The notes under the pieces are model-generated. The model was given only the letters and a program-made list of their open reading frames with translations. It did no database searches and was not told the origin of the DNA. A stretch of 64,000 nt of DNA from Minisyncoccia bacterium. GTDB lineage: Bacteria; Patescibacteriota; Minisyncoccia; Phycocordibacterales; CALRBL01. Where the stretch lies: positions 114,667-178,666 of the forward strand of contig JBBRNV010000001.1 in the NCBI GenBank assembly GCA_038230075.1. The letters are read 5' to 3'. Made by a program: the position numbers and the translations under genes. Below, piece after piece: positions 7,492-61,471 of the stretch; position 1 is the first letter of the stretch, and every line of letters starts with the position of its first letter.

Positions 7492-9363
7492 ATGTGTGGA
7501 ATCGCAGGAATACTAGGAAAAACCAATAAAGGCGAGCATTTAATTCACGAAATGGTGGATGCAATAACGCATCGTGGACCAGATGAGTTCGGATACTATA
7601 CTGACAAAGATTTTTCAATGGGAATGAGGCGGCTAAGTATTATCGATCTTGGCGGAGGTCATCAACCAATTGAAAATGAAGATGGAAATCTAACCATTGT
7701 TTTCAACGGAGAAATTTATAACTATCGAGAGCTTCGAAAGACTCTTAAACAGAAAGGTCATCAGTTTACAACTCAAAGTGATACAGAGGTTGTTCTTCAT
7801 CTATATGAAGAATATGGATCGAAAATGTTAACACTTCTTCGAGGAATGTTTACGTTTGCAATTTACAACAAAACAACCAAAGAAGTTTTTATCGCTAGAG
7901 ATTACTTTGGTATCAAACCACTTTACTATTTAGTTGATAGAAACAATGTCGTAGCCTTCGCTTCAGAAATTAAAAGTTTACTACTTCATCCAGCTGCACG
8001 AAAAGAAGTAAATGAAGAAGCGATCTTTCAATATCTTTCATATCAATATAATCCTCTTCAAGAAACATTCTTCAAAAATATTTGGAAATTGCCCCCAGGA
8101 CATTTTCTTCGAGTAAATATTGCTGAGCTTAAAGTGTGCGAACAACAGTATTGGGGCTATCAATTTCATCAAGAAAACATTTCTGAAAAAGTATTAGCAA
8201 AACAACTTCTTGAACACCTGCGAGAAAGCGTTCGTGCTCACATGATTGCCGATGTTCCTGTTGGAGCATTCCTAAGTGGAGGAATCGACAGTGCTGTCAT
8301 TGTTTCATTAATGGCCAGAGAAACGGAGCAGAAAATTAATACCTTTACGGTAACCTTCGATTCAGTCAGCGAAGCAAATGAAGCTCGTGTCATCGCAAAA
8401 GCCTTAAAGACAAACCACCAAGAAATAAATGTTACTCGAGCTGATTTCATGAACGCGCTTCCTAACATGGTGTGGCATTTTGACGAACCTGTCGCAGACC
8501 CTTCTGCGGTTGGTCTTTATTTCTTAGCAAAAGAAGCTCGAAAGAAAGTAAAGGTTGTTCTTTCTGGCGAAGGATCAGATGAATTATTTGGTGGTTACAA
8601 TATTTATCGAGAGCCACTTGCGCTTTCTGTTAGTAACTTTATTCCGAAGTTTTTACGAAAATTGATTATCAAACCTCTTGTTACTTCAAGTCTGAACTTC
8701 TACGGAAAGAACTATCTAAAACGTTTTTTAACACCTGTCGAAGAACGATATATTGGAAATGCTCGCGTCTTTCAACCAGATGAAGTCAAAAAGCTATGGA
8801 GAGGAAGAAACTATATTCAAGAGGCAGGTTCATTTGAAAAAACTCTTCCCAGTATGCAAGCGTACAAACAAGCTGAACGAAATGGAGCCCATTCAGATTC
8901 TGCCAAAATGCAATACATCGATATTAATTATTGGATGCCAGGAGACATTCTTCAAAAGGCTGACAAAATGACCATGGCTCATTCACTCGAACTACGAGTG
9001 CCGTTTCTCGATATAGATATTGCTCGAATTTCTTCACGAATTCCAGATTCACTCAAGTATAAGAATGGCATGACAAAGTATATTCTTCGTCGAGCAGTCA
9101 GGGGCATTATTCCTAAAGAGTCTTCAAACAGAAAGAAACTTGGCTTTCCAACAGCGCTTAAATTGTGGCTTCGAGAAGATCCAGTGATGCTCAAAACTAT
9201 TCGTGATACAATTTCATCTAACAGACATTTAAAGAAATATATCGATCTTGCCTCAGTTATGGGAATGATTGAAGAACACAGTAAAACAAATGCTGATCAT
9301 TCACGAAAAATATATTTACTGTACATCTTGTCGTTATGGTTTAATAAATTTTTAGATAAGTAA
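7492..9363 (+). CDS. asnB: Asparagine synthetase (glutamine-hydrolysing) family amidotransferase
   Basis: N-terminal MCGIAG Ntn-nucleophile and SGGIDS PP-loop ATP pyrophosphatase motif. Length 623 aa. Confidence 0.85.
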   Translation: MCGIAGILGKTNKGEHLIHEMVDAITHRGPDEFGYYTDKDFSMGMRRLSIIDLGGGHQPIENEDGNLTIVFNGEIYNYRELRKTLKQKGHQFTTQSDTEVVLHLYEEYGSKMLTLLRGMFTFAIYNKTTKEVFIARDYFGIKPLYYLVDRNNVVAFASEIKSLLLHPAARKEVNEEAIFQYLSYQYNPLQETFFKNIWKLPPGHFLRVNIAELKVCEQQYWGYQFHQENISEKVLAKQLLEHLRESVRAHMIADVPVGAFLSGGIDSAVIVSLMARETEQKINTFTVTFDSVSEANEARVIAKALKTNHQEINVTRADFMNALPNMVWHFDEPVADPSAVGLYFLAKEARKKVKVVLSGEGSDELFGGYNIYREPLALSVSNFIPKFLRKLIIKPLVTSSLNFYGKNYLKRFLTPVEERYIGNARVFQPDEVKKLWRGRNYIQEAGSFEKTLPSMQAYKQAERNGAHSDSAKMQYIDINYWMPGDILQKADKMTMAHSLELRVPFLDIDIARISSRIPDSLKYKNGMTKYILRRAVRGIIPKESSNRKKLGFPTALKLWLREDPVMLKTIRDTISSNRHLKKYIDLASVMGMIEEHSKTNADHSRKIYLLYILSLWFNKFLDK

Positions 9364-13563: not shown

Positions 13564-14721
13564 TTAAGCCAAATCAATTAACACGATTTCTGATTTTGTA
13601 AATGTTCGAATTGGTGGTCCCCAGGTTCCTGCACCACTAGAAGTAATTACCTGTAAATCCCCCACTGGCTTTATGCCATAGTCATATCCTTTGAATACTT
13701 TTCTTGTGAGGTATCTAAATGGCCACACCTGACCTTGGTGAGTGTGTCCTGACATTTGAATTCCATTTCCAATTTGCTTAGACAAATCAATATTATCAGG
13801 AACATGTTTTAAATATAAAACAGGAGCTGCAAAAGGAATTTCTTCATCTTCTTTAAGAGTCACAATATCGTCTGCCAATTTTTCTATTTCTTCTGCAAAT
13901 AAATTTCGAGTTTCAGTAGTTTTATAACTTGAGCCTGCAATCACTAATCCATCAACCACAACTGCATTGTCTTCGAGTACTTTAATGCCTGCATTATCAA
14001 GCGCTTTAACATACAACTGATCATCTCCAAAACTTTCATGGTTCCCTGTGATGGCATATATACCAAATGGTGCATTAATTTTGGCGAACTCTAATGCTAA
14101 TTCGTCAACACTCACTTTCATTCCGTCGTAAAAATCGCCCCCATGAAGCACAATATCGGGCGAGAGGCCTTGAATAATACCAACAAGTTTCTTTGCAGTT
14201 CCCAACCTTCTCACTTGCCCGAAATGGGTGTCTGAGATAAAAACAACCTTTCTCCCCTTCCACTGTTCAGGAAGGTTTGGAAGCGATACTGAATACCTTG
14301 TTACCACCACTTTATTAGCGTTTAAAATGCCGTACACTGTAAGCGCAACAGGGATAATGAGAAGTAGTGCAAAAACAACTGGATCGATTGTTATAAACGA
14401 AGATACGAGGCCTAAAATAATTGAAAAACCGAATAGATAGAAAAAGAGTCCCATCCATCCTACCGATATTTTATAGAATATTCGAGAAAATGTATTATCT
14501 TTATATCGAGTCAAAACGGTTGAGATCAAGAAAATAAAACTCAAAACAAAGAATTTAACCATGCCATAAGTTGCCCATACTCCTGTAAGACCAAGCCCTT
14601 GAACGATCACTTTTCCTGTAAGCCAATGAGTGCTAAGTAAAATAACTTGTACTAACACAATAAAAAAAATGAAAAAGGTAGGCATTACGGCGATTGTAAC
14701 ATAAAACAAAAAGCCTCTCAC
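13564..14721 (-). CDS. Membrane-anchored calcineurin-like metallophosphoesterase
   Basis: Four N-terminal TM helices, then DxH (SDTHFG), GD (HGGDFYDG), GNHE and GHTH motifs in order. Confidence 0.85.
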   Translation of the reverse strand: MRGFLFYVTIAVMPTFFIFFIVLVQVILLSTHWLTGKVIVQGLGLTGVWATYGMVKFFVLSFIFLISTVLTRYKDNTFSRIFYKISVGWMGLFFYLFGFSIILGLVSSFITIDPVVFALLLIIPVALTVYGILNANKVVVTRYSVSLPNLPEQWKGRKVVFISDTHFGQVRRLGTAKKLVGIIQGLSPDIVLHGGDFYDGMKVSVDELALEFAKINAPFGIYAITGNHESFGDDQLYVKALDNAGIKVLEDNAVVVDGLVIAGSSYKTTETRNLFAEEIEKLADDIVTLKEDEEIPFAAPVLYLKHVPDNIDLSKQIGNGIQMSGHTHQGQVWPFRYLTRKVFKGYDYGIKPVGDLQVITSSGAGTWGPPIRTFTKSEIVLIDLA

Positions 14722-14757
14722 ACGAGAGGCTTTTTGTTTGGTTTTTTATTTCTTATA

Positions 14758-16631: not shown

Positions 16632-16707
16632 CCACCTCAAATTGTCACGAGTCAAAACAACAAAATCCTCCGCCTAGCACCCGGAGGATTTGCAGTTTTC
16701 AGTGTAG

Positions 16708-16801
16708 GAAAATAAAAATACCTTGTTTGGAACGATTCCGCAGACCCTGTTCAAATTTATGGGTCGAGGACTTAGTAACAAAACAAGGTATTTTTATTTT
16801 C
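16708..16801. repeat. Long-stem/conserved-loop palindromic element, copy A
   Basis: 21-bp perfect AT-rich inverted repeat (gaaaataaaaataccttgttt / aaacaaggtatttttattttc). It encloses a 52-nt loop, GGAACGATTCCGCAGACCC...GGGTCGAGGACTTAGTAACA. It ends 3 nt from the rpmA stop. Confidence 0.6.
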
Positions 16802-16804
16802 TAT

Positions 16805-17077
16805 CTAGACAATGTGAACGATTTTTCGAACAGTTGTTGAACCGTCAAAATTTCCTTTTCGCTTCTTTCCAAATTCAACTTTTCCGTCTTTGAGAGCAAA
16901 GAGTGTGTGATCTCGTCCTACTCCAACATTCTTTCCAGCCATGATTTTTGTTCCTCGTTGTCGCACAATAATAGAGCCCGTCTTAGCGATTTCTCCATCA
17001 TACAATTTAACACCAAGAAACTTTGGTTTTGAGTCTGTTAGGTTTTTAGCTGTTCCTCCTGCTTTTTTACTTGCCAT
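16805..17077 (-). CDS. rpmA: 50S ribosomal protein L27
   Basis: MASKKAGG...[23 protein letters not shown] matches L27 end-to-end. Confidence 0.95.
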
Positions 17078-17117
17078 AGTGTGAGTATAGTAATAGATTA
17101 GGCCCTTTTATGCAAGC

Positions 17118-17564
17118 TTACGCTGCGGCCTGAACTATAAGTTTAAATGTTGCTGTTTTATCTTGAACTTTGACTTCCATATCAAATTCTCCAACTTCTT
17201 TGATAGGCTTTGGCATAACAAGGTAGTCTGCCAATACATCGACATGTGTCTGTTCTTTGATCGCAGGAATAATTTCTTCTTTGTGAATACCGGCAAAAAG
17301 ATGACCTTTTTCATTGGCTGAATGAGTAACGGTAACAGTAACTCCTTCAATGCTTTTGAGGTTCTTAATAAGAAGGTCTTCGTGAATTGACCGATCTGCA
17401 TCGTGCACAGCCTTCATTTTATCGAGTCGGGCCATTGCCTTATCTGATGCCATTTCTGCTAATTTTTTAGGAAAGAGAAAGTTCAAAGCATGGCCATCTG
17501 CCACGTCTTTTACTTCAAATCGCTTGCCAACTGCTGGAACGTCTTTTAACAAAATTACTTTCAT
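17118..17564 (-). CDS. rplI: 50S ribosomal protein L9
   Basis: MKVILLKDV..G..G..V.V..GHALNFLFP N-domain plus a C-domain of the right length (148 aa). This is L9, not L21. Confidence 0.85.
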   Translation of the reverse strand: MKVILLKDVPAVGKRFEVKDVADGHALNFLFPKKLAEMASDKAMARLDKMKAVHDADRSIHEDLLIKNLKSIEGVTVTVTHSANEKGHLFAGIHKEEIIPAIKEQTHVDVLADYLVMPKPIKEVGEFDMEVKVQDKTATFKLIVQAAA

Positions 17565-17607
17565 AGGTTAGTTAGTATATCGATTTTTAGCCATTTGTCT
17601 ACCAATC

Positions 17608-18936
17608 TTATTTACCTGTTTTTACGAACTCAACTGCTCGGTCTAATTGTGGATCTTTAGCGTTAGTAAAGTCGTCTCGGGTCAAATCAACGTTAATATC
17701 AGGGCTTAGTCCTCCATCTGAGATAGAAACGCCATTTGGAGTCAACCATCGGGCTACAGTGACCTTGAGCATAGTGTCAGAAGTGATAGGAACAAGCTCT
17801 TGAACAGATCCTTTTCCAAATGATCGAGTTCCAATTAATTTCGCCTTTCCGTATTCACTAAGTGCACCAGCTAAGATTTCTGAAGCAGATGCTGAACCTC
17901 CGTTGATAAGAATAGCAAACTTCAAATCGTCGGTGAAAATGTCATACCCCTTACTTCGTGAATCTTTTTCATCACTTCCCTTACTTGAAACTTCTCGAAC
18001 TACCACTTTTCCATTTGGAAGGAACCATGAGGCAATATCAACTGCAGCATCTAGGTATCCTCCTGGATTTCCTCGAAGATCGAGAACAAGTTTATTTGAA
18101 TTTGAATTTACAAATTCTCGAAGTGCATTTCTAAACAAGTTTGGAGACTCTGCGGTGAAGCTATAGAGGCGAATGACGAATACTCCATCTGATCGAAGTT
18201 TGTAATCGATTGTTGGAATACTAATAGTATCTCGAACAACCTTAATCACACGTGGCTCTTTTTCATCTCCTCGAACAATACTAAAAACGACTTCTGTTCC
18301 TTTTGGACCCCGAATCAAATTAACCGCTTGATCTACTGAAAGACCTGCGGCCAGAGTGTCATTAATTTTGTATAACTTATCACCAGTTGTTAAGCCGGCT
18401 TTATCTGCAGGAGTACCAGGAAGCGCCGTCACCACAGTCAGAATGCCATCTTTAATACCCATTTCCATTCCCACCCCTTCAAAGTTGCCACTTATTTCAC
18501 TTTTGAAAATTTTTGATTCTTCAGGACTAAAGAAAACAGTGTACGGATCACCAAGAGAAGCAACCATTCCTTTAATGGCACCGAGTAATCGTTCTTTGGG
18601 TGTGTCTGATGTGAGTGGAGAACTTGTTGATGTTGATGAGGCATGATGAGTTGCTACATATTTTTTATCAATCAAAGCCCATGTTTGCCAAAAAGGAGAA
18701 AAATCAACAGTGTCTGACTGACCAACATCTTTCGAAACAACCGATGTTACGTCGAGGGCTGGATCGTGATGTGAATGTCCGATGTATACACCAACTCCGA
18801 ACGCTCCAGCGACTAAGAGAATTGCACAAAGTGGAAAAATAATTTTTGAAACGAACGAGCCAGAAGAATTCATATCGTTGAGTATCTCAAATTGAGATGA
18901 CGAGGTCAATCGATTGCGATATAATAGTTTGCACAT
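17608..18936 (-). CDS. ctpA: Carboxyl-terminal processing protease (S41) with PDZ domain
   Basis: N-terminal TM, PDZ region, RGNPGG and GGSASASEI catalytic-domain motifs. The start may be at the internal Met ~18873. Confidence 0.85.
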   Translation of the reverse strand: MCKLLYRNRLTSSSQFEILNDMNSSGSFVSKIIFPLCAILLVAGAFGVGVYIGHSHHDPALDVTSVVSKDVGQSDTVDFSPFWQTWALIDKKYVATHHASSTSTSSPLTSDTPKERLLGAIKGMVASLGDPYTVFFSPEESKIFKSEISGNFEGVGMEMGIKDGILTVVTALPGTPADKAGLTTGDKLYKINDTLAAGLSVDQAVNLIRGPKGTEVVFSIVRGDEKEPRVIKVVRDTISIPTIDYKLRSDGVFVIRLYSFTAESPNLFRNALREFVNSNSNKLVLDLRGNPGGYLDAAVDIASWFLPNGKVVVREVSSKGSDEKDSRSKGYDIFTDDLKFAILINGGSASASEILAGALSEYGKAKLIGTRSFGKGSVQELVPITSDTMLKVTVARWLTPNGVSISDGGLSPDINVDLTRDDFTNAKDPQLDRAVEFVKTGK

Positions 18937-19858
18937 GGTTAAAAAACATCAGTACAAAGATTTGGTTTGGTATGATCTTGAAAAACCAACACATGACGAA
19001 GTTCGAGAACTGATGGAAGCTTTTAATATTGATCCTCTCGCTGCAGAAGAGTTGCTCACAAAAACTGTGAAGCCAAAAGTAGACATGACTGAAGATCATA
19101 TTTATATGGTGCTTCACTTCCCCATGATTCATCAAAACATGCATCGTGGCCTACAATCTGAAATAAGCCAAGAAATAGACTTTATTATTGGTGAAAAATT
19201 TCTTATCACTGCCCACTATGACCACATCGATGCCCTCGATAATTTCTCTCATATATTTGAAACAGAAGGAAGATTAGCAAAACATCGATTTGGAAATCAC
19301 GCTGGATATATCTTCTTTTATATTTTACGCGACCTCTATCGATCAATGGTGCATGAACTTGAATCAATTCGTGAATCACTTCGAAGTATTGAAAATAAAA
19401 TTTTTCATGATGAAGAAAAAAAGATGGTGTACAGTTTGTCACGAATCAATCGAGATCTTTTAACTTTCAAAGAAGCGACCAATCTACACAAAAGTGTTTT
19501 GGAATCATTTGAAATTGCCTCAAAGAAATTATTTGGCGACGATTTCGCTCCTCAAATGCAAAGTATTATGAATGAATACTATCGAAATCATGCAGCAATT
19601 CAAGAAAGTAAAGAATTTCTAGACGAACTTCGAAAAACAAATGACTCACTTCTCGCAGCAAGACAGAACGAAACAATCAAAATCTCAAATATTTTAGCAA
19701 CCATTTTCCTTCCCCCCTCTTTTATTTTGTGGCTTTTTTCAATTCGATCACCTATCCCCTTCCTTGAGCATGAATATTCATTCTGGATTGTAGCCGCATG
19801 TCTTTTTGTCTTAGGGTGTTGTATCTTTGTATTCTACAAATTCAAACGCTGGCTTTAA
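18914..19858 (+). CDS. CorA-family divalent-cation transporter-like protein (lacks the GMN motif)
   Basis: CorA-like N-terminal domain (VWYDLEKPTHDEVRELMEAFNIDPLAAEEL) and two C-terminal TM helices. The canonical YGMNF is absent. Confidence 0.65.
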   Translation: MRYNSLHMVKKHQYKDLVWYDLEKPTHDEVRELMEAFNIDPLAAEELLTKTVKPKVDMTEDHIYMVLHFPMIHQNMHRGLQSEISQEIDFIIGEKFLITAHYDHIDALDNFSHIFETEGRLAKHRFGNHAGYIFFYILRDLYRSMVHELESIRESLRSIENKIFHDEEKKMVYSLSRINRDLLTFKEATNLHKSVLESFEIASKKLFGDDFAPQMQSIMNEYYRNHAAIQESKEFLDELRKTNDSLLAARQNETIKISNILATIFLPPSFILWLFSIRSPIPFLEHEYSFWIVAACLFVLGCCIFVFYKFKRWL

Positions 19859-19888
19859 TACTAAATAAGAGAATAATAGAGACATCAT

Positions 19889-21319
19889 ATGAAAGATATC
19901 CCCATCAAGCTTCACAACACCTTAACTGGAACAACTGACACCTTTTCTTCTCTCACCGACCATCGTGTTGGTATGTATCATTGTGGTCCGACGGTATATC
20001 ACTATGCACACATTGGAAACCTTCGTTCATATATATTAGCCGACACACTTAGACGAATGTTTGAAGTTAACGGATATTCAGTAAATCAAGTTATCAACCT
20101 CACCGATGTTGGACACCTCACCGGCGACAACTTAGGTGATGCTAATAGCGGTGAAGATCGAGTTGAAAAAGAAGCAAAGAAAGAAGGAAAAACTGCACAA
20201 GAAATTACCTCATTTTATATTGATGCTTTTTTCAAAGACTTACAAGCACTCAATATTGAAACTGAAGGAACACATTTTCCAAAACCAACTGATCATATTC
20301 CTGAGCAAATTAAAATGATTCAAGAACTTGAAGCAAAAGATGCTGTATACAGAATTTCAGACGGTATGTATTTTGATACATCAAAATATCCTCACTATGG
20401 AAAACTAGGTAATATCAATATCGAAGGACAAAAAGAAGGGGCACGTGTTGAAAGTACAGGAGAAAAACGAAATCCTTCAGACTTTGCGTTGTGGAAATTC
20501 TCTCCCGAAAATGAAAAACGGCAACAAGAGTGGGAATCTCCATGGGGAATTGGTTTTCCTGGTTGGCACATTGAGTGCTCTGCCATGAGTATGAAATATC
20601 TTGGCGAAACATTTGATGTTCACACTGGTGGTATCGATCATATTCCCGTACATCACAACAATGAAATTGCTCAATCTGAACTCGTGACAGGAAAACCTTT
20701 TGCCAACTACTGGCTACACAATGCCTTCGTTAATGTTAATGGAGGAAAGATTGGAAAATCTCTTGGTACCAGCGTGCTTCTTCAAGAAATTATTGAGAAG
20801 GGCTACTCTCCTCTTGATTATCGATATCTTCTTTTGCTTGCTCGATATAGTCAGCAAGTAAATTTTACCTATGAAATTTTAGATGCCGCTCGTGCAGCGA
20901 GAGAACGATTAGTAAAACATGCAAGTATGATTATTAATAAAGTCGACAATTCAAAATTAGAGTATGTTGAAAAATTTGTTGAGATCATTAATAACGACCT
21001 TGATACTCCTCAATTGATTGCCGAACTCTGGAATTCTCTCAAAAACGAATCAATTTCTGATGAAGAAAAACTAAATTACATTTATACCGTTGATAAACTT
21101 ACAGGACTTACCTTACTTACATCTGCAAAAGAATTGGCTCAAAAAGTGGTATCTCACATTCCTGAAAATATTATGTCGCTTATTCAACAACGCCTCGCTG
21201 CTCGTGAACAAAAAGCTTGGACAACATCAGACAAATTACGAGACCAAATCAATTCATTAGGTTACGATATCAAAGATATCCCAGACTCTCCTTTTTACAT
21301 TCTCGAATCAACACAATAA
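19889..21319 (+). CDS. cysS: Cysteinyl-tRNA synthetase
   Basis: MYHCGPTVYHYAHIGN HIGH motif, Zn-ligand Cys, KIGKSLG KMSKS motif. 476 aa. Confidence 0.95.
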   Translation: MKDIPIKLHNTLTGTTDTFSSLTDHRVGMYHCGPTVYHYAHIGNLRSYILADTLRRMFEVNGYSVNQVINLTDVGHLTGDNLGDANSGEDRVEKEAKKEGKTAQEITSFYIDAFFKDLQALNIETEGTHFPKPTDHIPEQIKMIQELEAKDAVYRISDGMYFDTSKYPHYGKLGNINIEGQKEGARVESTGEKRNPSDFALWKFSPENEKRQQEWESPWGIGFPGWHIECSAMSMKYLGETFDVHTGGIDHIPVHHNNEIAQSELVTGKPFANYWLHNAFVNVNGGKIGKSLGTSVLLQEIIEKGYSPLDYRYLLLLARYSQQVNFTYEILDAARAARERLVKHASMIINKVDNSKLEYVEKFVEIINNDLDTPQLIAELWNSLKNESISDEEKLNYIYTVDKLTGLTLLTSAKELAQKVVSHIPENIMSLIQQRLAAREQKAWTTSDKLRDQINSLGYDIKDIPDSPFYILESTQ

Positions 21320-21411
21320 AACACACATAGTACAGATGGAGCGATTCCGCACGCCTTCTATTAGATTTTCTAGACCGAAGACTTAGTGACACTGTGTACT
21401 ATATGTGTTTT
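21318..21411. repeat. Long-stem/conserved-loop palindromic element, copy B
   Basis: About 17-bp imperfect inverted repeat (aaaacacacatagtacag / ctgtgtactatatgtgtttt). It encloses a 56-nt loop, GGAGCGATTCCGCACGCC...GACCGAAGACTTAGTGACA, sharing the core with copy A. It starts inside the cysS stop codon. Confidence 0.55.
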
Positions 21412-22928
21412 GTTATGTTGATAACTCAGTGGACAACCTGTTCAAAACTCTTCTCATTCTTACTTTGTCCCCCTCCTTCGCTTCGTGTTACAATCACCTC
21501 AACATGCAGCCTGATATCCAAACTCAAAACTTCCCTAAAAACAGAACTGCTACTTTAAATATGACAGGTGTTCGTCTTCCCCCTCAAAATCTCGACTCTG
21601 AAAAAGCTTTTCTTGGTTCTATTATGCTTCGACCAGAATCAATTCATGAAGTAATGGATGTGATTAGTTACGAAACATTCTATTCTGATCGACATCGAAT
21701 CATTTATACAGCTATGCTCGATTTGTTTAATAAAGGCGAACCAATCGACTTTGTTTCCCTTTCTGCAAAACTTCGAGAAAAAGGATTATTCGAACAATCA
21801 GGTGGAGCAAGTTACTTAACTGAACTTGTTCACATTGTTCCCTCATCAGCAAACATCAAACACTATGCAGGCACCATCGACAAAAAGCATCGAATGCGAA
21901 AGTTGATTGAAGCTGCAGAACATATTGAAAGAATTGGATACGACGAAAGCGGTGAGATTGAAGAATTACTCGACGAAGCAGAAAAAAAGATTTTCTCTGT
22001 TACAAACTATCAAGGAACTCACAAATTTATTCACCTCAAAGACACACTCGGAGAAGCACTCGAAAGACTCGATACGCTTCATAAAAACCAAGATCAAGTA
22101 CGAGGTGTACGAACAGGATTCAAAGATCTTGATAGTAAACTCTCTGGATTTCAAAAATCAGACCTTGTTATTCTTGCTGCTCGACCTTCTATGGGAAAAA
22201 CATCTCTCGCCCTCGATCTCGCTCGAAATGCAGCTGTGCAACACAATCATCCTGTAGCAATCTTCTCTCTTGAAATGAGTTCTCAGCAATTGGTTGATCG
22301 TATGCTTGCGGCTCAAGGAAACGTTGACTCATGGAAAATTCGAACAGGACACGGCACAACTGAAGACGATTTCATGCGACTTCGAGATGCAAGTGACAAA
22401 CTTTCAAAAGCTCCTATATTCATTGATGACCAACCTGGAAATAATATTGTAAAAATGAGAGCAGTTTGCAGACGACTGAAAGCTGAACACGGGCTCGATA
22501 TGATTATCGTCGATTATTTGCAGCTCATGAATCCAGTTTCTAATAGATTTGCTGACAGTATGGTGAATCAAGTAACAGAAATTTCTAAATCACTAAAACA
22601 ACTCGCCCGAGAAATGGACGTGCCTGTTATTGCACTTTCTCAGTTAAACCGAGCAGTTGAAGCTCGAGGTGGAGAACCTCGACTATCTGACCTTCGAGAT
22701 TCAGGTTCTATTGAACAAGATGCTGACGTTGTTATGTTTATTCACCGAGAAGATAAATACAATAAAGAATCTGATAAACCAGGTATTGCAAGAATCATGA
22801 TTGAAAAACATCGAAATGGTCCGACAGGTGCTGTTGAGCTCTACTTCAACGAAAAGAAAACCTCATTTCAAAATATTGATAAGAGTGAATTTAATATGGG
22901 AAGTGCTGGAGCCTTCGGTTCGTTTTAG
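21405..22928 (+). CDS. dnaB: Replicative DNA helicase DnaB (start uncertain; possibly ~21505 or ~21562)
   Basis: DnaB N-domain (LPPQNLDSEKAFLGSIML), Walker A (RPSMGKTSLALDLA), RecA-like C-domain. The first ~50 codons overlap element B and are probably not translated. Confidence 0.9.
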   Translation: MFCYVDNSVDNLFKTLLILTLSPSFASCYNHLNMQPDIQTQNFPKNRTATLNMTGVRLPPQNLDSEKAFLGSIMLRPESIHEVMDVISYETFYSDRHRIIYTAMLDLFNKGEPIDFVSLSAKLREKGLFEQSGGASYLTELVHIVPSSANIKHYAGTIDKKHRMRKLIEAAEHIERIGYDESGEIEELLDEAEKKIFSVTNYQGTHKFIHLKDTLGEALERLDTLHKNQDQVRGVRTGFKDLDSKLSGFQKSDLVILAARPSMGKTSLALDLARNAAVQHNHPVAIFSLEMSSQQLVDRMLAAQGNVDSWKIRTGHGTTEDDFMRLRDASDKLSKAPIFIDDQPGNNIVKMRAVCRRLKAEHGLDMIIVDYLQLMNPVSNRFADSMVNQVTEISKSLKQLAREMDVPVIALSQLNRAVEARGGEPRLSDLRDSGSIEQDADVVMFIHREDKYNKESDKPGIARIMIEKHRNGPTGAVELYFNEKKTSFQNIDKSEFNMGSAGAFGSF

Positions 22929-22946
22929 ACATATTCATAAATTTAA

Positions 22947-23585
22947 ATGGATCCAATCACCCGACTCTCAGAAATATTTCGACACTTTCCAGGAATTGGT
23001 CCGCGGCAAGCAAAACGTTTCGTCTACTATCTTCTAACACGTGACAAAAAAGTATTAAAAGAATTATCTGACCATCTTCTTGAACTACGAGACATTGTTC
23101 GAATGTGTGAAGATTGCTATCGATTTTTTGAATTCAAACCACACACATCTGCAACATCAGATGCCAAATGCTCAATTTGTCGAAACACTCATCGTGATCG
23201 AACACTTATTATGATTGTGGCTAAAGATCAAGATTTAGAAACTATTGAAAAAAGTAAAACATTTCATGGGGTGTACTTTGTACTTGGTGGAACGATTCCC
23301 TTATTAGATAAAGCGCCTGAACAAGCAGTTCGATTACGTGAATTTCGAAAACGAATTGAAAAAGGAATCAAAGAAGACAATTTGGCTGAAGTAATTATTG
23401 CTCAAAACATGAATACTGAAGGAGAATATACTTCAAGTTTTATTCAAGGAGAATTGGAAGAAATGAAACAGAAACATCCTTTTATTATTTCCCTTCTTGG
23501 CCGAGGTCTTTCAACAGGCACCGAACTTGAATATTCTGACTCTGAAACACTTAAATTTGCACTAGGTTCAAGAATTAAGCGATAA
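22947..23585 (+). CDS. recR: Recombination protein RecR
   Basis: HhH (FPGIGPRQAKRFVYYLL), C4 zinc finger (CEDC...CSIC), Toprim domain. Confidence 0.9.
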   Translation: MDPITRLSEIFRHFPGIGPRQAKRFVYYLLTRDKKVLKELSDHLLELRDIVRMCEDCYRFFEFKPHTSATSDAKCSICRNTHRDRTLIMIVAKDQDLETIEKSKTFHGVYFVLGGTIPLLDKAPEQAVRLREFRKRIEKGIKEDNLAEVIIAQNMNTEGEYTSSFIQGELEEMKQKHPFIISLLGRGLSTGTELEYSDSETLKFALGSRIKR

Positions 23586-23597
23586 GATAAAGTCTCA

Positions 23598-23678
23598 CTA
23601 AAATAACAAAAGACCTTTCTTCAACGTCCTCGGCCTTACAGCCTGCGAATGCTTCAGAAAGGTCTTTTGTTATTTTAG
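23598..23678. repeat. Long-stem/conserved-loop palindromic element, copy C (short-loop variant, inverted)
   Basis: 23-bp perfect inverted repeat (ctaaaataacaaaagacctttct / agaaaggtcttttgttattttag) with a 35-nt loop. The reverse complement of the loop (GAAGCATTCGCAGGC...GGCCGAGGACGTTGA) resembles the A/B core. It sits between the convergent recR and rplU stops. Confidence 0.5.
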
Positions 23679-24152
23679 CTATGCTAACTTTTCAATCTGA
23701 ACTTGAAAGAATGGCTGTCGGTGTCCGTTTTTCTTGAAGTATCTACTCTTCTGTTTGTATTTGATGATAGTAACTTTTGCATGTCGTCCGATCTTCACAA
23801 GCTTTGAAGTAACCTTTGTTCCAGTAAATGGAGCTCCAACAGTTGTTGTTGTTCCAGTGTTTGAAAGAAGTACATTATCGAATGAGATAGTATCTCCTTC
23901 TTTGTATTCTCCAAGCATCTTTTCAATCTTTAAAAGATCACCAACATGAACTACATATTGCTTTCCACCTGTCATGATAATAGCGAAATCTGTAGCATTT
24001 TCTGCCTTTTCTGCTTTTTTATAATGTTTGATCAAAGATTTAGAAGTTGTTGATGCCGTTGTTTCTGTAGAAACTGTTGCAACATCTGCCTTTTTAGCCT
24101 TTGGAGCTGCTTTTTTCTTAGTTATTTCTTTTGCCATAAGTTCAAGCATCAT
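23679..24152 (-). CDS. rplU: 50S ribosomal protein L21 with ~55-aa Lys/Ala-rich N-terminal extension
   Basis: FAIIMTGGKQYVVHVGD...RHAKVTIIKYKQKSRYFKKNGHRQPF matches L21. It is preceded by a KKAAPKAKK-type tail. Confidence 0.85.
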   Translation of the reverse strand: MMLELMAKEITKKKAAPKAKKADVATVSTETTASTTSKSLIKHYKKAEKAENATDFAIIMTGGKQYVVHVGDLLKIEKMLGEYKEGDTISFDNVLLSNTGTTTTVGAPFTGTKVTSKLVKIGRHAKVTIIKYKQKSRYFKKNGHRQPFFQVQIEKLA

Positions 24153-24673: not shown

Positions 24674-25762
24674 TTACTCCCCTCCCTCAATTAATGGTTT
24701 TTCAATCGTATTAATTTCAAGTTCAACCGTTGAACCAGTGATGCGTGTAATATCTTTATTTATTTTCTTAAATTCTTTGTTGGTCGCATTGAAATGATTA
24801 ACCACCGTTCCAAGTGCTCCACCAAGTTTTGTATGATATTCCTCATAGCTTCGAAGATGTCGTGCAAGCTCTTCAACATTTTCTCGGATTTCTTTTGCTG
24901 ATTCTTCAACCTGAAGCGCTTTCAATCCTTGAAGAACAGTTTGAAGATATGCCAAAAACGATGTTGGAGAAACAATAATCACTCTTTTATCTTTAAAGGC
25001 ATATTCAATTAAATCTCTCGTATTCATTTTTACCGCACCCACCTCTGATACGAGAAGATCATAATAAAGTGCTTCGTGTGGAATAAACATGAAAGCGAAA
25101 TCCATTGTTCCCTCACTTGGTTTTACATACTTAGCAGTTTCATCAATTCTATTTTTTAGATCTGCTTTAAATGCTCGTTCAAGTCGTTCTTGTTCTGATG
25201 GATCATGCGCACCAAGCAAACGATTATAGTTTTCAAGAGAAAATTTTGAGTCGATAGGAATAATTTTTTCTTTAATAAACACCACCGCATCAACTATTGT
25301 TCCGTCTTTAAATGTGTACTGCATTTGATAGCTTCCTGTTGGTAATACATTTTTAAGAAGTGTTTCTAAATAGTATTCACCTAAAATTCCTCGCTGTTTT
25401 GGATTCTTTAGAATGTCTTGAAGTGACTGCAACTGATCAGCGAAAGAAACAACTTGTTTATTAGTCTCGTCGAGGCGTGTTAATTTTTCAGTGATATCTC
25501 GAACAATTTTTACTGTCTCACCCGCTTGAAATCGCATTGATTCCTGCATATCTTTCGCTGATGTTCCAATCTTGTGATCAACAGTTCGTGAGAGTTCATT
25601 CATTTGAGCAAGAATCAGTTCGAGTCCTTTGTCGTTTCCATTCATTTTTTCGAGATCATTGCGTGTTCCAATCTTTTTACTCATGAACCACAAGATTCCA
25701 CCAACAATAAGAACTTGCAGAATGATAACCACTGCAACAATGAGAATGAAAGATGAATTCAT
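24674..25762 (-). CDS. rmuC: DNA recombination protein RmuC
   Basis: N-terminal TM, long coiled-coil, C-terminal nuclease-like domain with FMFIPHEALYYDLL (RmuC signature). Confidence 0.8.
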   Translation of the reverse strand: MNSSFILIVAVVIILQVLIVGGILWFMSKKIGTRNDLEKMNGNDKGLELILAQMNELSRTVDHKIGTSAKDMQESMRFQAGETVKIVRDITEKLTRLDETNKQVVSFADQLQSLQDILKNPKQRGILGEYYLETLLKNVLPTGSYQMQYTFKDGTIVDAVVFIKEKIIPIDSKFSLENYNRLLGAHDPSEQERLERAFKADLKNRIDETAKYVKPSEGTMDFAFMFIPHEALYYDLLVSEVGAVKMNTRDLIEYAFKDKRVIIVSPTSFLAYLQTVLQGLKALQVEESAKEIRENVEELARHLRSYEEYHTKLGGALGTVVNHFNATNKEFKKINKDITRITGSTVELEINTIEKPLIEGGE

Positions 25763-26613: not shown

Positions 26614-27213
26614 CTATTTCAACAAACTTTTAAGAACTGGATACACTCGATCGGCAATCTTTGCATATCCAATATCATTAGGATGCACTGCGTCAGACAT
26701 ATATTCTGAATGAGTCACCAAACCATCAAGCACATTTGAAACATACCCAACTCCCTTTCGCTTCGCTAAGTCTTTAAATAATGATTCAAACTGGTCTGAG
26801 AAAATTCCTCCTTGAACACCGAGAAGTAACACAATAGAACCTGACTCTTGAAGCTTAGTCACGATAGTTTCTAAATTTTTAAATGTTTGTTCTTTAGGAA
26901 CTTTCTTTAAATAATCATTTCCTCCAAGAAGCACGATCACTATTTGTGGCTTCATTTCAATCACCGCATCAATTCGCGCAAGACCGTCTGCTGTTGTGTT
27001 TCCAGATACTCCAAGATTAACAATTGGTTGTGCTATCTTTTTTGAGAGATCACTAACTAAATCGTTTCCATTTGTTGCGCCAATTCCTTCAATTAAGCTA
27101 TCACCGCGAAGTCTGTCGACTTGATGTCGAAAGAAGTCACCGTAAGACTGATCAACGCCTACTGAGAAGAAGTGGATCGGTTGGTTAACCCAAAGGGCGG
27201 TGCGCATACGCAC
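26614..27213 (-). CDS. SGNH/GDSL-family hydrolase
   Basis: GGND block (IVIVLLGGNDYL) and C-terminal DxxH (DAVHPN). The N-terminal Ser block is degenerate. Confidence 0.6.
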   Translation of the reverse strand: MRMRTALWVNQPIHFFSVGVDQSYGDFFRHQVDRLRGDSLIEGIGATNGNDLVSDLSKKIAQPIVNLGVSGNTTADGLARIDAVIEMKPQIVIVLLGGNDYLKKVPKEQTFKNLETIVTKLQESGSIVLLLGVQGGIFSDQFESLFKDLAKRKGVGYVSNVLDGLVTHSEYMSDAVHPNDIGYAKIADRVYPVLKSLLK

Positions 27214-27248
27214 CGCCCTTTGTTTGTTATTATTTTTTTATTGAATGA

Positions 27249-31550: not shown

Positions 31551-31985
31551 TTAGAGCGCGCCGATTTCTCCTAACTTTTCGGCTAATTCATCGGCGTGTT
31601 CCATAACAGACTTTTTGTATGTAGCCCAACGTTCTTCATTCCATAATTCCACTCGATTGTGAACACCAGCAAATACAACTTTCTGACCAAGTGAAGCAAA
31701 TTCTTTTAAAAAATCAGGAATCAAGATACGACCTGCGCTATCTACATCAATTTCAGCGGCACCTGCGAGCATGAATCTATTGAATCCTCGGGTGTTTGCC
31801 TGACCAATTGAGAGATTGCCTAACTTCTCAGATATTTTTTGCCATTCTTTTAGTGGGTACAAGAATAAACAATTATCCAAGCCGTGAGTGATCACCACTT
31901 TCTTCCCTACCTCTTTTCGAAACTTAATCGGCAAAGAGATACGTTTCTTTTCATCTTGGCTGTGTGTGTATTCACCTATTAACAT
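31551..31985 (-). CDS. mraZ: Transcriptional regulator MraZ
   Basis: 144 aa with the duplicated MraZ fold pattern (MLIGEYTHSQDEKKRISLP...; second half GRILIP). First gene of the minus-strand dcw-like cluster. Confidence 0.85.
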   Translation of the reverse strand: MLIGEYTHSQDEKKRISLPIKFRKEVGKKVVITHGLDNCLFLYPLKEWQKISEKLGNLSIGQANTRGFNRFMLAGAAEIDVDSAGRILIPDFLKEFASLGQKVVFAGVHNRVELWNEERWATYKKSVMEHADELAEKLGEIGAL

Positions 31986-32086: not shown

Positions 32087-32314
32087 TGAAGACACTATAT
32101 AACAGTACTTACTACCCAACAACATACTTATCCACAAAAATTCACCAATTGTGCACAAGGACACGATTTGAGGAAAGTGAAAGTGAACGATCGTACATAG
32201 AAAAAAACAGCAGATATGTAGTTTGAGGTGAATTCGCAGGCTTTTGTTCCGCAAAGAACAAAGACCGAGGACTTAATGACAAACTACATATCTGCTGTTT
32301 TTTGTGATCTCAGA

Positions 32315-33781
32315 CTATCGTGGGCGCATTGTTGGGAAGAAAATCACTTCCTTAATATTCTTTGTATTTGTAAGAAGCATGACCAGTCTATCGATTCCGA
32401 TACCAACTCCTCCCGCAGGTGGCATACCGTGTTCCATTGCTTCAATAAAATCTTCATCTAAACTTTGTGCGTCTTTCTCGCCCTCAGCCTTACTCTTCTC
32501 CTGTTCCTCAAATCGAGATCGTTGATCAATAGGATCATTCAACTCTGAAAAAGCCTTAACGAGTTCAACTCCTGCAATTACAAGTTGAAATGCTTCAACG
32601 AATTGTGGTGCTGATTTTTTTCGTTTCGCCAAAGGAAGATATTCTGCGGGATAATCGATAATGAAGGTTGGTTGAATCAGTGCCGGTCGTGCTGATTTTT
32701 TATACAAATTATCAAGCATTTTTGCACGTGAGTCTCCTTTATCTACCGTTATTCCATATTCATGGCACTTTTCAGTAAGATCAGCGAGTGAGATAGTTTC
32801 TGGATCAGATATTCCTGCAAATTTATTGAGAAGACTGAAATATGAAACAACACTAAATTCTTTTGAGAAATCAACACTGTTTTCTCCAAGTTCGAGAACT
32901 TCAGTCTTTAGAACATCTTTAACGATTCTTCGAATCATTTGCTCAGTAAATTTCATTTGTTTATCGGCATCGCTATATGCCTCGTAGAATTCGAGCATGG
33001 TAAATTCTGGATTATGTGTCATATCAATTCCTTCATTTCTAAAATCTCGAGCGATTTCATATACTTTTGGAAAACCAGCTACGAGCATTCTCTTGAGATA
33101 TAACTCATCAGAAATTCGAAGATATAAACGCATATCGAGTGCGTTGTGATGTGTTACAAAAGGTTCAGCTGAAGCTCCTCCATATAAAGGTTGTAGAGCA
33201 GGAGTTTCAACTTCTAAATACCCTGCTCCGTCGAGAATAGTTCTAATTAGTGTAACTATTTTTGATCGAACAATGAAGCGTTCTCGAACTTCATCTGCCA
33301 TGAGTGCATCAAGATATCGTTTTCGGAATCGTTCTTCAACATCTTGTAGGCCGTGCCATTTTTCAGGAAGTGGAAGTAAGCTCTTTGAGAGCATGTTCCA
33401 TGTTTGAACTTGAACAGTCTGCTGACCTCGTTTTGTAGTAAACAATGTTCCAGTTACTTCGACAAAATCTCCAATGTCGACAGTGTCATTAAACAAGTCG
33501 AACATTCCTTCAACTGATTCATCTTTTTTAAGGAGTGATTGAAAGCGAGCAGTTCCATCGAAAAGATCAAAGAAGATTAATCCTCCTTGTGCACGAAATG
33601 ACATAACTCGCCCCCCAACAGTTACTGATGTTTGAGCTGCTGACCATGTATCGAAATTCTTCTGAGTGTCGAGAAGTGAATGTTCAATGTGAGATGTTGC
33701 AGGATATGCATCAACTCCTTTTTCTTTTAAAAGGCTCAGTTTTGCAAGCCGTGATTGTCGTTGTTCTTCAAGAGATGCCAT
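32315..33781 (-). CDS. lysS: Lysyl-tRNA synthetase (class II)
   Basis: N-terminal OB anticodon-binding domain and class II motifs 1-3. 488 aa. Confidence 0.95.
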   Translation of the reverse strand: MASLEEQRQSRLAKLSLLKEKGVDAYPATSHIEHSLLDTQKNFDTWSAAQTSVTVGGRVMSFRAQGGLIFFDLFDGTARFQSLLKKDESVEGMFDLFNDTVDIGDFVEVTGTLFTTKRGQQTVQVQTWNMLSKSLLPLPEKWHGLQDVEERFRKRYLDALMADEVRERFIVRSKIVTLIRTILDGAGYLEVETPALQPLYGGASAEPFVTHHNALDMRLYLRISDELYLKRMLVAGFPKVYEIARDFRNEGIDMTHNPEFTMLEFYEAYSDADKQMKFTEQMIRRIVKDVLKTEVLELGENSVDFSKEFSVVSYFSLLNKFAGISDPETISLADLTEKCHEYGITVDKGDSRAKMLDNLYKKSARPALIQPTFIIDYPAEYLPLAKRKKSAPQFVEAFQLVIAGVELVKAFSELNDPIDQRSRFEEQEKSKAEGEKDAQSLDEDFIEAMEHGMPPAGGVGIGIDRLVMLLTNTKNIKEVIFFPTMRPR

Positions 33782-43766: not shown

Positions 43767-45302
43767 ATGAAAACAACGAGCACAGCGAAAGAAAGCCCCG
43801 TAAAGAAGATTGGTTTTTTTATAAAAACACTACGAGAGGATAAAGGAATTACACAGGCAGATTTTGCGAAGGCACTTTCAACTTCACAGAGTGCTGTTGC
43901 TCGAATGGAAAAAGGCGAACAAAACTTTAGTACCGAGCAACTCTCAAAAATAAGTAAGGTGCTTGGACGAAGTTTAATGCGACTTGAAAACTCAACAGAT
44001 GATTTTGAAATTAATGGTGGAAAAAAACTATCAGGAACGATTCAAACTAACTATTCAAAAAACGGCGCGCTCGGGCTTTTTTGCGCCGCACTATTAAACA
44101 AAGGAATCACTACTCTTCATGGAATTCCTCGAATTGAAGAAATTGCTCGTATTGTTGAAATCTTTGAAAGTATCGGTGTAGAAGTTAAGTGGATGGGAAA
44201 AAACACAGTGTGCATAACTCCTCCAAAAGTTTTCTGTCTTGAAAACATGAATCATGGTGCAGCCGCTCGTATTCGATCTGTTCTTATGATGATTGGATCG
44301 CTCACTCACCACATTCCTTCATTTTCAATCCCTCATGCTGGTGGATGCAAAATGGGACAACGAACAATTGCTGCCCATCGATATGCACTTGAAGCACTTG
44401 GCATTAATATTTCAACCAAATCAGACAGATACACTATTAATCGAAAGAAATTTAAACCTGCAGATGTGGTTATGTACGAAGCAAGTGACACCGCAACAGA
44501 GAACGCCATTATTGCAGCTGCACTTATTCCTGGAAAAACCACTCTTCGTTTTACTCCTCCAAATTATCAGGTGCAAGAAGTATGTTTCTTTTTAGAAAAA
44601 TGTGGGGTGAAGATTGAAGGAGTTGGATCAACTACTCTAACAATTCATGGCATCAAAGAAATTGACATGACAATTGAGTACACCAACAGTGAAGATCCTG
44701 TTGAATCAATGATGTTTTTGTCTGCTGGAATTGTGACTGAATCAACACTAACGGTTACTCGATGCCCCATCGAATTTCTTGCTGTTGAACTTTTAAAATT
44801 AGAAAAGATGGGTTTGAAATATACCTCAACAAAAGAATATTTCGCAGAGAATGGAAGAACAAAATTGGTAGACATCACTATTCATCCATCAAAACTGAAA
44901 GCGCCGTTAGACAAAATTCATGCTCTGCCATATCCTGGAATTAATACTGACAACCTTCCCTTTTTTGTTCCTATCGCAACCTTGGCTGTTGGAACAACAC
45001 TTATTCACGACTGGATGTGGGAAAATCGCGCAATCTATTTCACTGAACTTAACCGCCTCGGTGCAAATGTGGTTTTAGCAGACCCTCACCGAGTATTTGT
45101 CCAAGGTCCAACCAAACTTCGAGGATCTCAAATCGTATGCCCTCCAGCGCTTCGTCCTGCCATGATTATCTTAATCGCCATGCTTGCAGCTGAAGGAACC
45201 TCGATTTTGCGAAACGTATATGCTATAAATCGCGGATATGAAGATATTGCAGAACGCCTCAACTCGATTGGAGCAGACATCAGCATCATCAGCGACTTCT
45301 AA
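43767..45302 (+). CDS. murA: XRE-family HTH domain fused to UDP-N-acetylglucosamine 1-carboxyvinyltransferase (MurA)
   Basis: Residues ~15-70 are IKTLREDKGITQADFAKALSTSQSAVARMEKGEQNFSTEQLSKISKVLG, a Cro/C1-type HTH. The remaining ~436 aa are MurA, including the active-site Cys in GGCKMGQR. Confidence 0.85.
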   Translation: MKTTSTAKESPVKKIGFFIKTLREDKGITQADFAKALSTSQSAVARMEKGEQNFSTEQLSKISKVLGRSLMRLENSTDDFEINGGKKLSGTIQTNYSKNGALGLFCAALLNKGITTLHGIPRIEEIARIVEIFESIGVEVKWMGKNTVCITPPKVFCLENMNHGAAARIRSVLMMIGSLTHHIPSFSIPHAGGCKMGQRTIAAHRYALEALGINISTKSDRYTINRKKFKPADVVMYEASDTATENAIIAAALIPGKTTLRFTPPNYQVQEVCFFLEKCGVKIEGVGSTTLTIHGIKEIDMTIEYTNSEDPVESMMFLSAGIVTESTLTVTRCPIEFLAVELLKLEKMGLKYTSTKEYFAENGRTKLVDITIHPSKLKAPLDKIHALPYPGINTDNLPFFVPIATLAVGTTLIHDWMWENRAIYFTELNRLGANVVLADPHRVFVQGPTKLRGSQIVCPPALRPAMIILIAMLAAEGTSILRNVYAINRGYEDIAERLNSIGADISIISDF

Positions 45303-61384: not shown

Positions 61385-61471
61385 ATTGCTTCAATTGTAC
61401 ATGAGTATTATTAATAAAACAAAAGATCTCCTTGTGGAGATCTTTTGTTTTATGCTTGACTAGTAGCTTTT

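Follow-up and report, generated by a model that had tools for sequence, protein, structure and literature searches.

Among described bacterial repeats, the REP/REPIN sequences, which are mobilised by RAYT (a Y1 HUH transposase), are short hairpins in intergenic DNA after stop codons that occur in either orientation and sometimes clustered or as inverted pairs, are presumably recognised in their folded, single-stranded DNA form, and are tolerated as look-alikes of terminators or mRNA stabilisers. Here, we describe a hairpin family that resembles them in form, position and orientation in a 64-kb stretch of the genome of a Minisyncoccia bacterium (Patescibacteria), referred to below in its entirety as the window, with further copies in another Patescibacteria lineage and in Pinirhizobacter, where they form inverted pairs. 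With about an even chance of being right, we read the family as a selfish, non-autonomous, horizontally spreading hairpin module found directly 3′ of stop codons, either within or next to intrinsic terminators. It differs from REPs in what is conserved: REPs keep the stem and a 5′ GTAG or CGTC tag while the loop varies, whereas here the centre is kept and the arms and apex vary, the arms differing between copies with no shared tag (no GTAG) at the stem foot. Moreover, REP families are species-specific, whereas this core is common to two phyla, and no RAYT gene was found among the ~57 open reading frames (ORFs) of the window.

Mobile DNA that lands on hairpins or terminators offers a second precedent in IS1397/ISKpn1, IS110/IS1111-family elements in REPs and class C group II introns, and a landing preference of this kind would account for host-specific arms and a location at gene ends. 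Those elements, however, are autonomous, span 1–2.5 kb and encode a transposase or reverse transcriptase, whereas the present inserts of 35–55 nt have no coding capacity, and no full-length relative was found. The attC sites of integrons provide a third parallel as hairpins of variable sequence and conserved structure that start at or in the preceding stop codon, carry a variable terminal structure at the apex and are recognised as one folded DNA strand via extrahelical bases and an unpaired spacer. Their conservation nonetheless resides at the stem base (RYYYAAC/GTTRRRY) and they occur in co-oriented cassette arrays adjacent to an integrase, whereas our element is conserved internally, has long extra outer stems, occurs in mixed orientation and has housekeeping neighbours; no R″/R′ boxes were found at its stem base and no integrase in the window.

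Miniature inverted-repeat transposable elements (MITEs; for example the Correia elements of Neisseria), RUP and BOX are likewise small, non-autonomous and dispersed, often lie near terminators and form hairpins when transcribed. A preliminary description of the window had considered a MITE-like nature, which agrees with the dispersal of the copies and their turnover between related genomes but not with their ends: MITEs have conserved terminal inverted repeats, target-site duplications and termini like those of a parent insertion sequence, all absent here. It is the outer ends that vary most, the four window copies (A–D) and copy L140a of the second Patescibacteria lineage have no flanking direct repeat, and only the copies at a secY site described below lie between TTAA motifs, which are themselves part of the palindrome. 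Finally, the inverted pairs of DNA uptake sequences (DUS) in Neisseria and uptake signal sequences (USS) in Haemophilus also place a short motif, independently of orientation, in terminator hairpins after genes, but their motif forms the arms and saturates the genome, whereas ours is an asymmetric centre with a patchy distribution.

A hairpin family with a conserved irregular centre

The preliminary description had reported three hairpins (A–C) in the window, with stems of 17–23 bp, wholly unrelated arms and a shared loop. All three were found where it had placed them, but the family is larger: scoring a covariance model at each position identified exactly four copies, of which the fourth (D) had been missed. 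The copies, in window coordinates, are:

Copy A, 16707–16802, plus strand, full-length type (67.2 bits, folding z = −8.9); 5′ arm 16707–16729 and 3′ arm 16780–16802, with perfect 21-nt arms at 16708–16728 and 16781–16801; conserved 5′ strand GAACGATTCCGCAG at 16730–16743; apical hairpin P3, GACCC(13-nt loop)GGGTC, at 16743–16765; conserved 3′ strand CGAGGACTTAGTAAC at 16765–16779.
Copy B, 21307–21422, plus strand (55.8 bits); arms of ~17 bp with an imperfect continuation to ~30 nt at 21307–21335 and 21391–21422; core and P3 at 21336–21390.
Copy C, 23598–23678, minus strand, short type (24 bits, E = 4e-4, folding z = −10.5); perfect 23-nt terminator-like arms at 23598–23620 and 23656–23678; minus-strand core GAAGCATTCGCAG-GGCTgtaaGGCC-GAGGACGTTGA.
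Copy D, 32202–32303, plus strand (62.8 bits, folding z = −9.7); 24-bp arms; core AGGTGAATTCGCAG-(P3: GGCTTTTGTTC cgcaaa GAACAAAGACC)-GAGGACTTAATGAC.

The stem lengths reported for A, B and C are thus borne out, and alignment reproduced the sequences quoted as common to A and B between the arms, GGA(A/G)CGATTCCGCA ... CGA(G/A)GACTTAGT(A/G)AC, as well as their shorter version on the opposite strand in C. The arms do vary between copies, but are not wholly unrelated: an A-rich base, as is typical of terminators in this genome, is common to A and C, and some inner-arm sequence to copies of different genomes. The pattern TTCGCAGGC N4–34 CCGAGGAC occurs twice in the window and in none of 100 shuffles. 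Covariance model R1, whose input comprised A, B and D plus four copies of other organisms but not C, gave 67 bits for A, 63 for D, 56 for B and 24 for C, and ≤10.5 bits for everything else in the window, a 14-bit gap above noise; covariance-model E-values were 1e-12 to 1e-19, and C was recovered at E = 4e-4 by a model that had not seen it. In 0.89 Mb of unrelated contigs, picked for partial core matches, R1 found nothing better than E = 0.3. Folding z-scores of the hairpins against shuffles ranged from −5.3 to −10.5.

When 16 copies from three lineages were folded independently with RNAfold, all 16 adopted one common architecture, in which the presumed loop proved to be a continuation of the stem, that is, an irregular helix capped by a small variable apical hairpin. 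From the outside in, a host or variable outer stem leads to a G-C pair, tandem G·A/A·G, an A-U and a C-G pair, a small internal loop with GAU on the 5′ and CUUA on the 3′ side, an invariant 3-bp helix UCC/GGA, a bulged C, a 3×2 internal loop (5′ GCA, 3′ GA), a closing G-C pair and then P3, whose stem is as short as 3 bp, capped by a GAA triloop, or as long as 11 bp, and whose loops in C and D are GNRA-like. The middle irregular helix is thus the part that is kept, the outer stem and P3 being variable. The invariant minimum is UCCGCAG-(P3)-CGAGGAC, read as UUCGCAG with a U·G pair in C and D, to which most copies add a module GGAACGAU.../...CUUAGUGAC; the short variants (C, L140b, L164 and L165) dispense with this module and retain the minimum core. 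Between the arms, the insert measures 35–55 nt overall and 35–52 nt in the window copies. We found no solitary or split half-cores, such as might flank a cargo gene.

Pairing in this fold is supported by an alignment (A4) of 20 distinct sequences, in which 79% of cells are paired as compared with 32–52% when the 3′ partners are slid by 1–3 columns. The first pair above the tandem G·A (positions 15–64) is AU in 14, GC in four and GU in two sequences, and the second (16–63) is CG in 18, UA in one and AU in one. Moreover, a Pinirhizobacter copy, L125(−), has U-A and C-G in place of tandem G·A/A·G, so these positions face each other. The core strand folds more stably than its complement in 12 of the 16 copies, and arm mismatches on it are G·T in ~7–8 cases versus A·C in three, which is suggestive, though not decisive, of strand-specific use. 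Copy B has substitutions at two otherwise invariant core sites (GCAC for GCAG and GAAGAC for GAGGAC) and does not reach the family consensus fold, and is therefore probably decaying.

No Rfam family was matched: at gathering thresholds, Rfam 15 returned only four tRNAs in the window, and at E ≤ 10 it gave spurious microRNA-precursor and other low-scoring, sub-threshold matches driven by the long stems. Literature searches for the core sequence and related concepts returned nothing relevant, and the element is not described in Rfam or in the literature resources searched. Several specific identities were also considered and rejected. An IS200/IS605-type PATE, which would have two subterminal hairpins (one at each end) in direct orientation with guide and cleavage tetranucleotides, is contradicted by the single nested hairpin without a conserved flanking tetranucleotide and by the failure to find a Y1 transposase in the window; a K-turn by the bulged strand, which after the 3-nt bulge reads AG and not GA; hairpin-ribozyme loops A/B by a merely superficial likeness (GGAA/AGUG versus AGAA/AGUC) with no counterpart of loop B; a bacterial SECIS by the stop codons here, TAA and TAG; and likeness to 5S rRNA, tmRNA or signal recognition particle RNA by the lack of Rfam matches. 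An invertible promoter is at odds with the absence of promoter-like hexamers and with collinear orthologous Pinirhizobacter loci. Loop E/sarcin-ricin, the 11-nt tetraloop receptor, the tRNA T-arm, group II intron domain 5, single-strand origins or primosome assembly sites, rolling-circle nick sites and dif/Xer sites were rejected by inspection.

Placement at gene ends and turnover among relatives

As the preliminary description had pointed out for A–C, the hairpins abut stop codons. The neighbouring genes and the ordinary terminators used for comparison are:

rpmA (ribosomal protein L27), 16805–17077, minus strand, next to copy A.
cysS, 19889–21319, plus strand, whose native C-terminal codons form the outer part of the copy B 5′ arm.
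recR, 22947–23585, plus strand, converging on the copy C hairpin.
rplU (ribosomal protein L21), 23679–24152, minus strand, next to copy C.
mraZ, 31551–31985, minus strand, downstream of lysS and beyond copy D.
lysS (lysyl-tRNA synthetase, by sequence), 32315–33781, minus strand, next to copy D.
14704–14739, ordinary terminator (A-tract, 16-bp stem, 4-nt loop, T-tract).
16660–16693, ordinary short-loop bidirectional terminator directly beyond copy A.
27191–27222 and 61414–61453, other ordinary terminators.

Copy A lies 3 nt from the rpmA stop (16805–16807) and antisense to that gene. Copy B, whose 5′ arm takes in the last native cysS codons and stop (21317–21319), has the same sense as cysS and precedes dnaB, which probably starts at 21504. 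Copy C, between convergent recR (stop 23583–23585) and rplU (stop 23679–23681), adjoins the rplU stop, and copy D, 11 nt 3′ of the lysS stop and upstream of mraZ, is antisense to both these genes. The independence of orientation that had been proposed holds for the larger set, with four sites sense to the adjoining gene (B, C relative to rplU, L140a and L122−) and four antisense (A, D, the secY site and L122+). In a test for a link with the replication strand, GC skew was uniformly negative across the region, with three copies on one strand and one on the other, numbers too few to interpret.

In the ordinary terminators of this genome, a 14–18 bp stem with a 4-nt loop stands between an A-tract and a T-tract. 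Copies A, C and D likewise have arms with a 5′ A-tract and a 3′ T-tract, as at 14704–14739 and 61414–61453, but these arms enclose 35–52 nt with the conserved module where a terminator would have an apical loop of 3–8 nt, and a terminator scanner run on the window called none of A–D. Pinirhizobacter copies lack the T-tract. The contention that the hairpins are not ordinary terminators needs revision: the outer stems are at least partly the genome's own intrinsic terminators, because orthologous sites of relatives hold short-loop terminators with homologous arms (see below), and the element is thus better described as a terminator with a conserved apical insert. At copy A, and after secY in L140 and L164, the order is stop codon, element hairpin and separate canonical terminator, so the element can also sit beside a terminator and not only in it.

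The arms also include coding sequence. The distal 3′ arm of copy B (TTATGTTGAT) pairs with the last native cysS codons, the CysS C-terminus ...YILESTQ-stop aligning with ...YKILKKTE-stop of relatives, and the arms at the secY site take in the stop codon. Part of each arm is therefore local sequence made palindromic, and such arms would fit hairpin-templated correction or extension. A promoter-like TTGTCC-N18-(TG)TACAAT (21465–21506) lies just upstream of the probable dnaB start, and dnaB mRNA downstream of copy B may, judging from this sequence, be nearly leaderless.

Comparison with relatives revealed filled and empty sites. Among named organisms, the best relatives of the window's CysS are Patescibacteria (Paceibacteria-like). 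In L146, the closest available relative of the window (CysS 65% identical, DNA ~70% identical, syntenic over 10 kb), the position of copy A, adjoining the rpmA stop, is occupied by an ordinary terminator. Copy B and the dnaB promoter of the window have as their counterpart in L146 a cysS–dnaB gap of only 19 nt, and no copy occurs in 13 kb of syntenic L146 DNA. A second pair is provided by L165 and L140, which have the same gene order and 88% identical SecY. Between genes for an ABC-transporter binding protein and permease, L165 has an ordinary terminator, AAAAAATCAAAACCTCCAC-aaatgc-GTGGAGGTTTTGATTTTG, at the place where L140 holds copy a, AAAAGTATAACAAAACACTCTTTGG-(core)-CAGGGAGTGTTTTGTTATACTG; the two loci align in their coding flanks and have homologous basal arms.

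By contrast, the site after secY is filled, in the same orientation, in all of L140, L164 and L165. L164 and L165 carry the same subtype, with compensatory GAGC/GCUC versus GACC/GGUC, and L140 a different one. Because it is L140 that is closer to L164 (SecY 96% identical and flanks ~90% by eye, as compared with 88% for SecY of L140 and L165), this distribution implies that a variant has been replaced at this site. Moreover, the L165 secY copy shares 23 identical nt of core and P3 with L140a, at another locus. Beside the complete secY copy of L165 is a truncated half copy (1410–1440; an arm and the reverse complement of the CGAGGAC half), which points to a hot spot where insertion was nested or repeated. 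L165 also carries a PemK/MazF-type toxin gene (7876–8232) amid duplicated genes for the ABC-transporter binding protein and a TrmB regulator.

Some other features of the window deserve mention. RplU has an N-terminal extension of ~55 residues, the L21 profile matching only residues 56–156. An RmuC-family gene (24674–25762, minus strand) is located 1 kb from copy C; RmuC has been reported to limit inversions at short inverted repeats, and the proximity, worth noting in a genome with long perfect palindromes, is probably coincidental. An ORF for a MurA-like enolpyruvyl transferase (43767–45302, plus strand) with an N-terminal Cro/C1-type helix-turn-helix (residues 16–70) represents either an uncommon fusion or a pair of genes read as a single ORF. 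A 2,626-aa ORF (50722–58602, minus strand) without a Pfam domain at E ≤ 1e-4 is followed on the same strand by ORFs of 321, 252 and 325 aa and, beyond the ordinary terminator at 61414–61453, by a fourth of 219 aa, none with a Pfam match.

Sharing between Patescibacteria and Pinirhizobacter

The preliminary description had pointed to related genomes as a place to look for further copies, and these were found in another Patescibacteria lineage and in Pinirhizobacter. A strict pattern, scanned once across 185,579 species-representative genomes and once across metagenomes, yielded true copies only in Pinirhizobacter soli, a Pinirhizobacter metagenome-assembled genome, like soil contigs and the AT-rich contig L140, which belongs to that other Patescibacteria lineage and has no DNA similarity to the window; among the species representatives, the strict pattern occurred in Pinirhizobacter only. 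In viral contigs, 14-base and stricter patterns gave chance matches only, those of the stricter scan without flanking inverted repeats, and a BLAST search of plasmids with the core gave nothing significant.

Pinirhizobacter is a gammaproteobacterium with a genome of ~65% GC, and its hairpins, of ~55–68% GC, have perfect, GC-rich arms of 23–55 bp. Nonetheless, its core, GGAACGATTCCGCAGGA-GGGCgaaGCCC-GACGAGGACTTAGTGAC, equals the window consensus at essentially every conserved position, and GGAACGATTCCGCAGG...CGAGGACTTAGTGAC is identical in Patescibacteria and Pinirhizobacter. The inner arm adjoining the core, CCAGGGAG, is also identical in L140a and the L125 copy of Pinirhizobacter (L135a has CCAGGGTG), so at least the inner ~9 bp of stem travel with the element. 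In L140a, the opposite arm CTCTTTGG pairs with CCAGGGAG via T·G wobbles, the perfect complement being CTCCCTGG. We read these wobbles as C-to-T decay of the opposite arm in an AT-rich genome, which suggests transfer from a GC-rich donor, and from such sequence likeness the transfer between phyla looks recent.

Pinirhizobacter copies are inverted pairs ~145–300 nt apart. In P. soli, a ~330-nt unit of a hairpin, a 145-nt spacer and an inverted hairpin occurs at two loci with different flanks, one of them between COX3 and a hydrolase gene:

L122:2397–2741, P. soli unit, with conserved spacer containing CATTTCAAGCTGA.
L121:1–335, the second P. soli unit, with the same conserved spacer.

The spacer may represent a small gene, a small RNA or cargo. 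No 'empty' palindromes with the same arms were found in ~40 kb of Pinirhizobacter loci. At L125:2589–2680, the two Pinirhizobacter hairpins are separated by a stretch of N and then a long poly-C tract, probably because the long palindromes disturbed assembly.

Origin and possible mode of spread

The data above show the family, its fold and placement, the filled and empty sites, the turnover and the sharing across phyla; that it is mobile DNA and not a site selected by the host, that it uses a single-stranded-DNA route and that a cognate enzyme exists are inferred. If the family is a selfish module, what moves would be the 35–55 nt of insert with a few bp of its own stem, placed at the apex of or beside terminator hairpins, or in other palindromes after stop codons, and spreading within genomes and between distant bacteria, and the host would tolerate it because the terminator hairpin is left intact or even lengthened. 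The conserved irregular helix would serve as recognition site for a putative trans-acting, structure-specific protein that acts on the extruded, folded strand, most plausibly on single-stranded DNA at hairpin or cruciform apices, and the arms could afterwards be kept perfect and extended into the flanks by intra-hairpin templated repair. That DNA rather than RNA is the recognised substrate is a preference on our part, suggested by analogy with REP–RAYT, attC–IntI and IS200/IS605.

Several observations weigh against such mobility. The ~57 window ORFs are housekeeping or unannotated, with no recognisable transposase, HUH/tyrosine-transposase, integrase or reverse transcriptase among them, and none of the copies in the related loci has an enzyme linked to it. 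Neither a target-site duplication nor a conserved junction sequence was found, nor was any copy in viral contigs or plasmids, hence no known vector. The filled and empty sites come from genomes whose proteins have diverged by 12–35%, which makes exact insertion boundaries unreadable. Only ~20 distinct sequences are available, many from closely related Pinirhizobacter copies, and the excess of G·T over A·C is modest, hence short of proof for strand-specific use. Moreover, a near-identical core across phyla and compensatory stem changes would equally fit a functional site selected by the host.

One alternative, which we regard as unlikely, is a cis-acting structured RNA of the 3′ untranslated region, an aptamer or protein platform seated on the terminator that tunes termination, read-through or 3′-end stability. 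The preliminary description had envisaged a functional structured element, and in this it is supported by the conserved unpaired or irregular positions between co-varying stems: conserved non-Watson–Crick positions between co-varying helices are typical of functional RNAs. Several G·U pairs are moreover confined to the core strand (at 15–64 in B, in P2 of C and D, and in the L140a arm), the sense strand is, as noted above, the more stable in most copies, and a location after stops and inside terminators, with B separating cysS from dnaB, is where such a module could act. What nonetheless disfavours a cis-acting role is that A, D, the secY-site copies and L122(+), one half of the total, run antisense to the preceding gene. 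With D antisense to both neighbours and no sense-strand promoter apparent, this mix of orientations argues against a cis-acting RNA and equally against an independent small RNA gene, for which no suitably placed promoter was found upstream of A or D. In addition, the neighbours (rpmA, cysS, rplU/recR, lysS, secY, an ABC-transporter binding protein and COX3) lack a functional theme, perfect stems of 20–55 bp are unusual for RNA elements, and Rfam gave no genuine match even at its most permissive threshold.

Less probable still is a host-beneficial DNA site, comparable to those of gyrase, IHF or polymerase I at REP/BIME, whose core would be bound, extruded or as a duplex, by a conserved chromosomal protein in DNA organisation, replication or recombination, with the copies kept by host selection. 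Orientation-independent, intergenic and multi-copy occurrence, a core strictly conserved across phyla, long perfect palindromes that favour cruciform extrusion and the failure to find a mobilising enzyme would all suit such a site. A universal host factor, however, would predict a broad distribution, whereas the observed one is very patchy, with Pinirhizobacter alone among the species representatives scanned and no copy in L146; furthermore, copy B is apparently decaying and variants have been replaced at one site among close relatives.

We consider it very improbable that the element is a small self-cleaving ribozyme or other catalytic RNA dispersed like the bacterial hammerhead and twister, even though it has ~25–30 strictly conserved nt in internal loops between variable helices, several copies per genome and representatives in unrelated phyla. 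No Rfam ribozyme was matched (hammerhead, twister, twister-sister, pistol, hatchet, hairpin or HDV-like), the hammerhead motifs CUGANGA and GAAA are absent by inspection from both strands, the single rod has none of the junctions or pseudoknots of known classes, the short variants C, L140b, L164 and L165 lose half of the conserved nt, and the mix of orientations is as awkward here as for a cis-acting RNA. Lastly, that these are ordinary terminators whose loops are alike by chance or low complexity, a caveat already raised at the observed AT content and one in keeping with their A- and T-tracts typical of this genome's terminators, is refuted by the shuffles (core pattern in 0/100), by the covariance-model E-values and gap above noise given above, and by an identical core in a genome of ~65% GC.

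Returning to the selfish hairpin module, a bolder version, which we hold to be possible though doubtful, is that it represents a new class of ultra-small mobile element that integrates specifically at the apices of extruded hairpins, those of terminators and palindromes, through a putative structure-specific enzyme and has recently moved between Patescibacteria and Pinirhizobacter. The near-identical core, the shared inner arm and the T·G wobbles of L140a all support such recent transfer. Patescibacteria are regarded as epibionts of other bacteria, and a shared element could therefore mark a physical pairing of host and epibiont.

If the selfish-module reading is right, the family would provide a very small candidate mobile unit, with no gene and no terminal repeats, that survives by hiding in an intergenic hairpin which a streamlined genome cannot lose. 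Its recognition logic, with a conserved irregular centre and variable arms and apex, would be a new one beside those of REP, MITE and attC, and would imply an undiscovered structure-specific nuclease or recombinase. Inserts of this kind, which terminator predictors would miss, shift operon boundaries, the cysS–dnaB interval being 19 nt in L146 as compared with a 115-nt hairpin in the window, and UCCGCAG-hairpin-CGAGGAC would constitute an easily searchable marker for gene flow between Patescibacteria and Proteobacteria.

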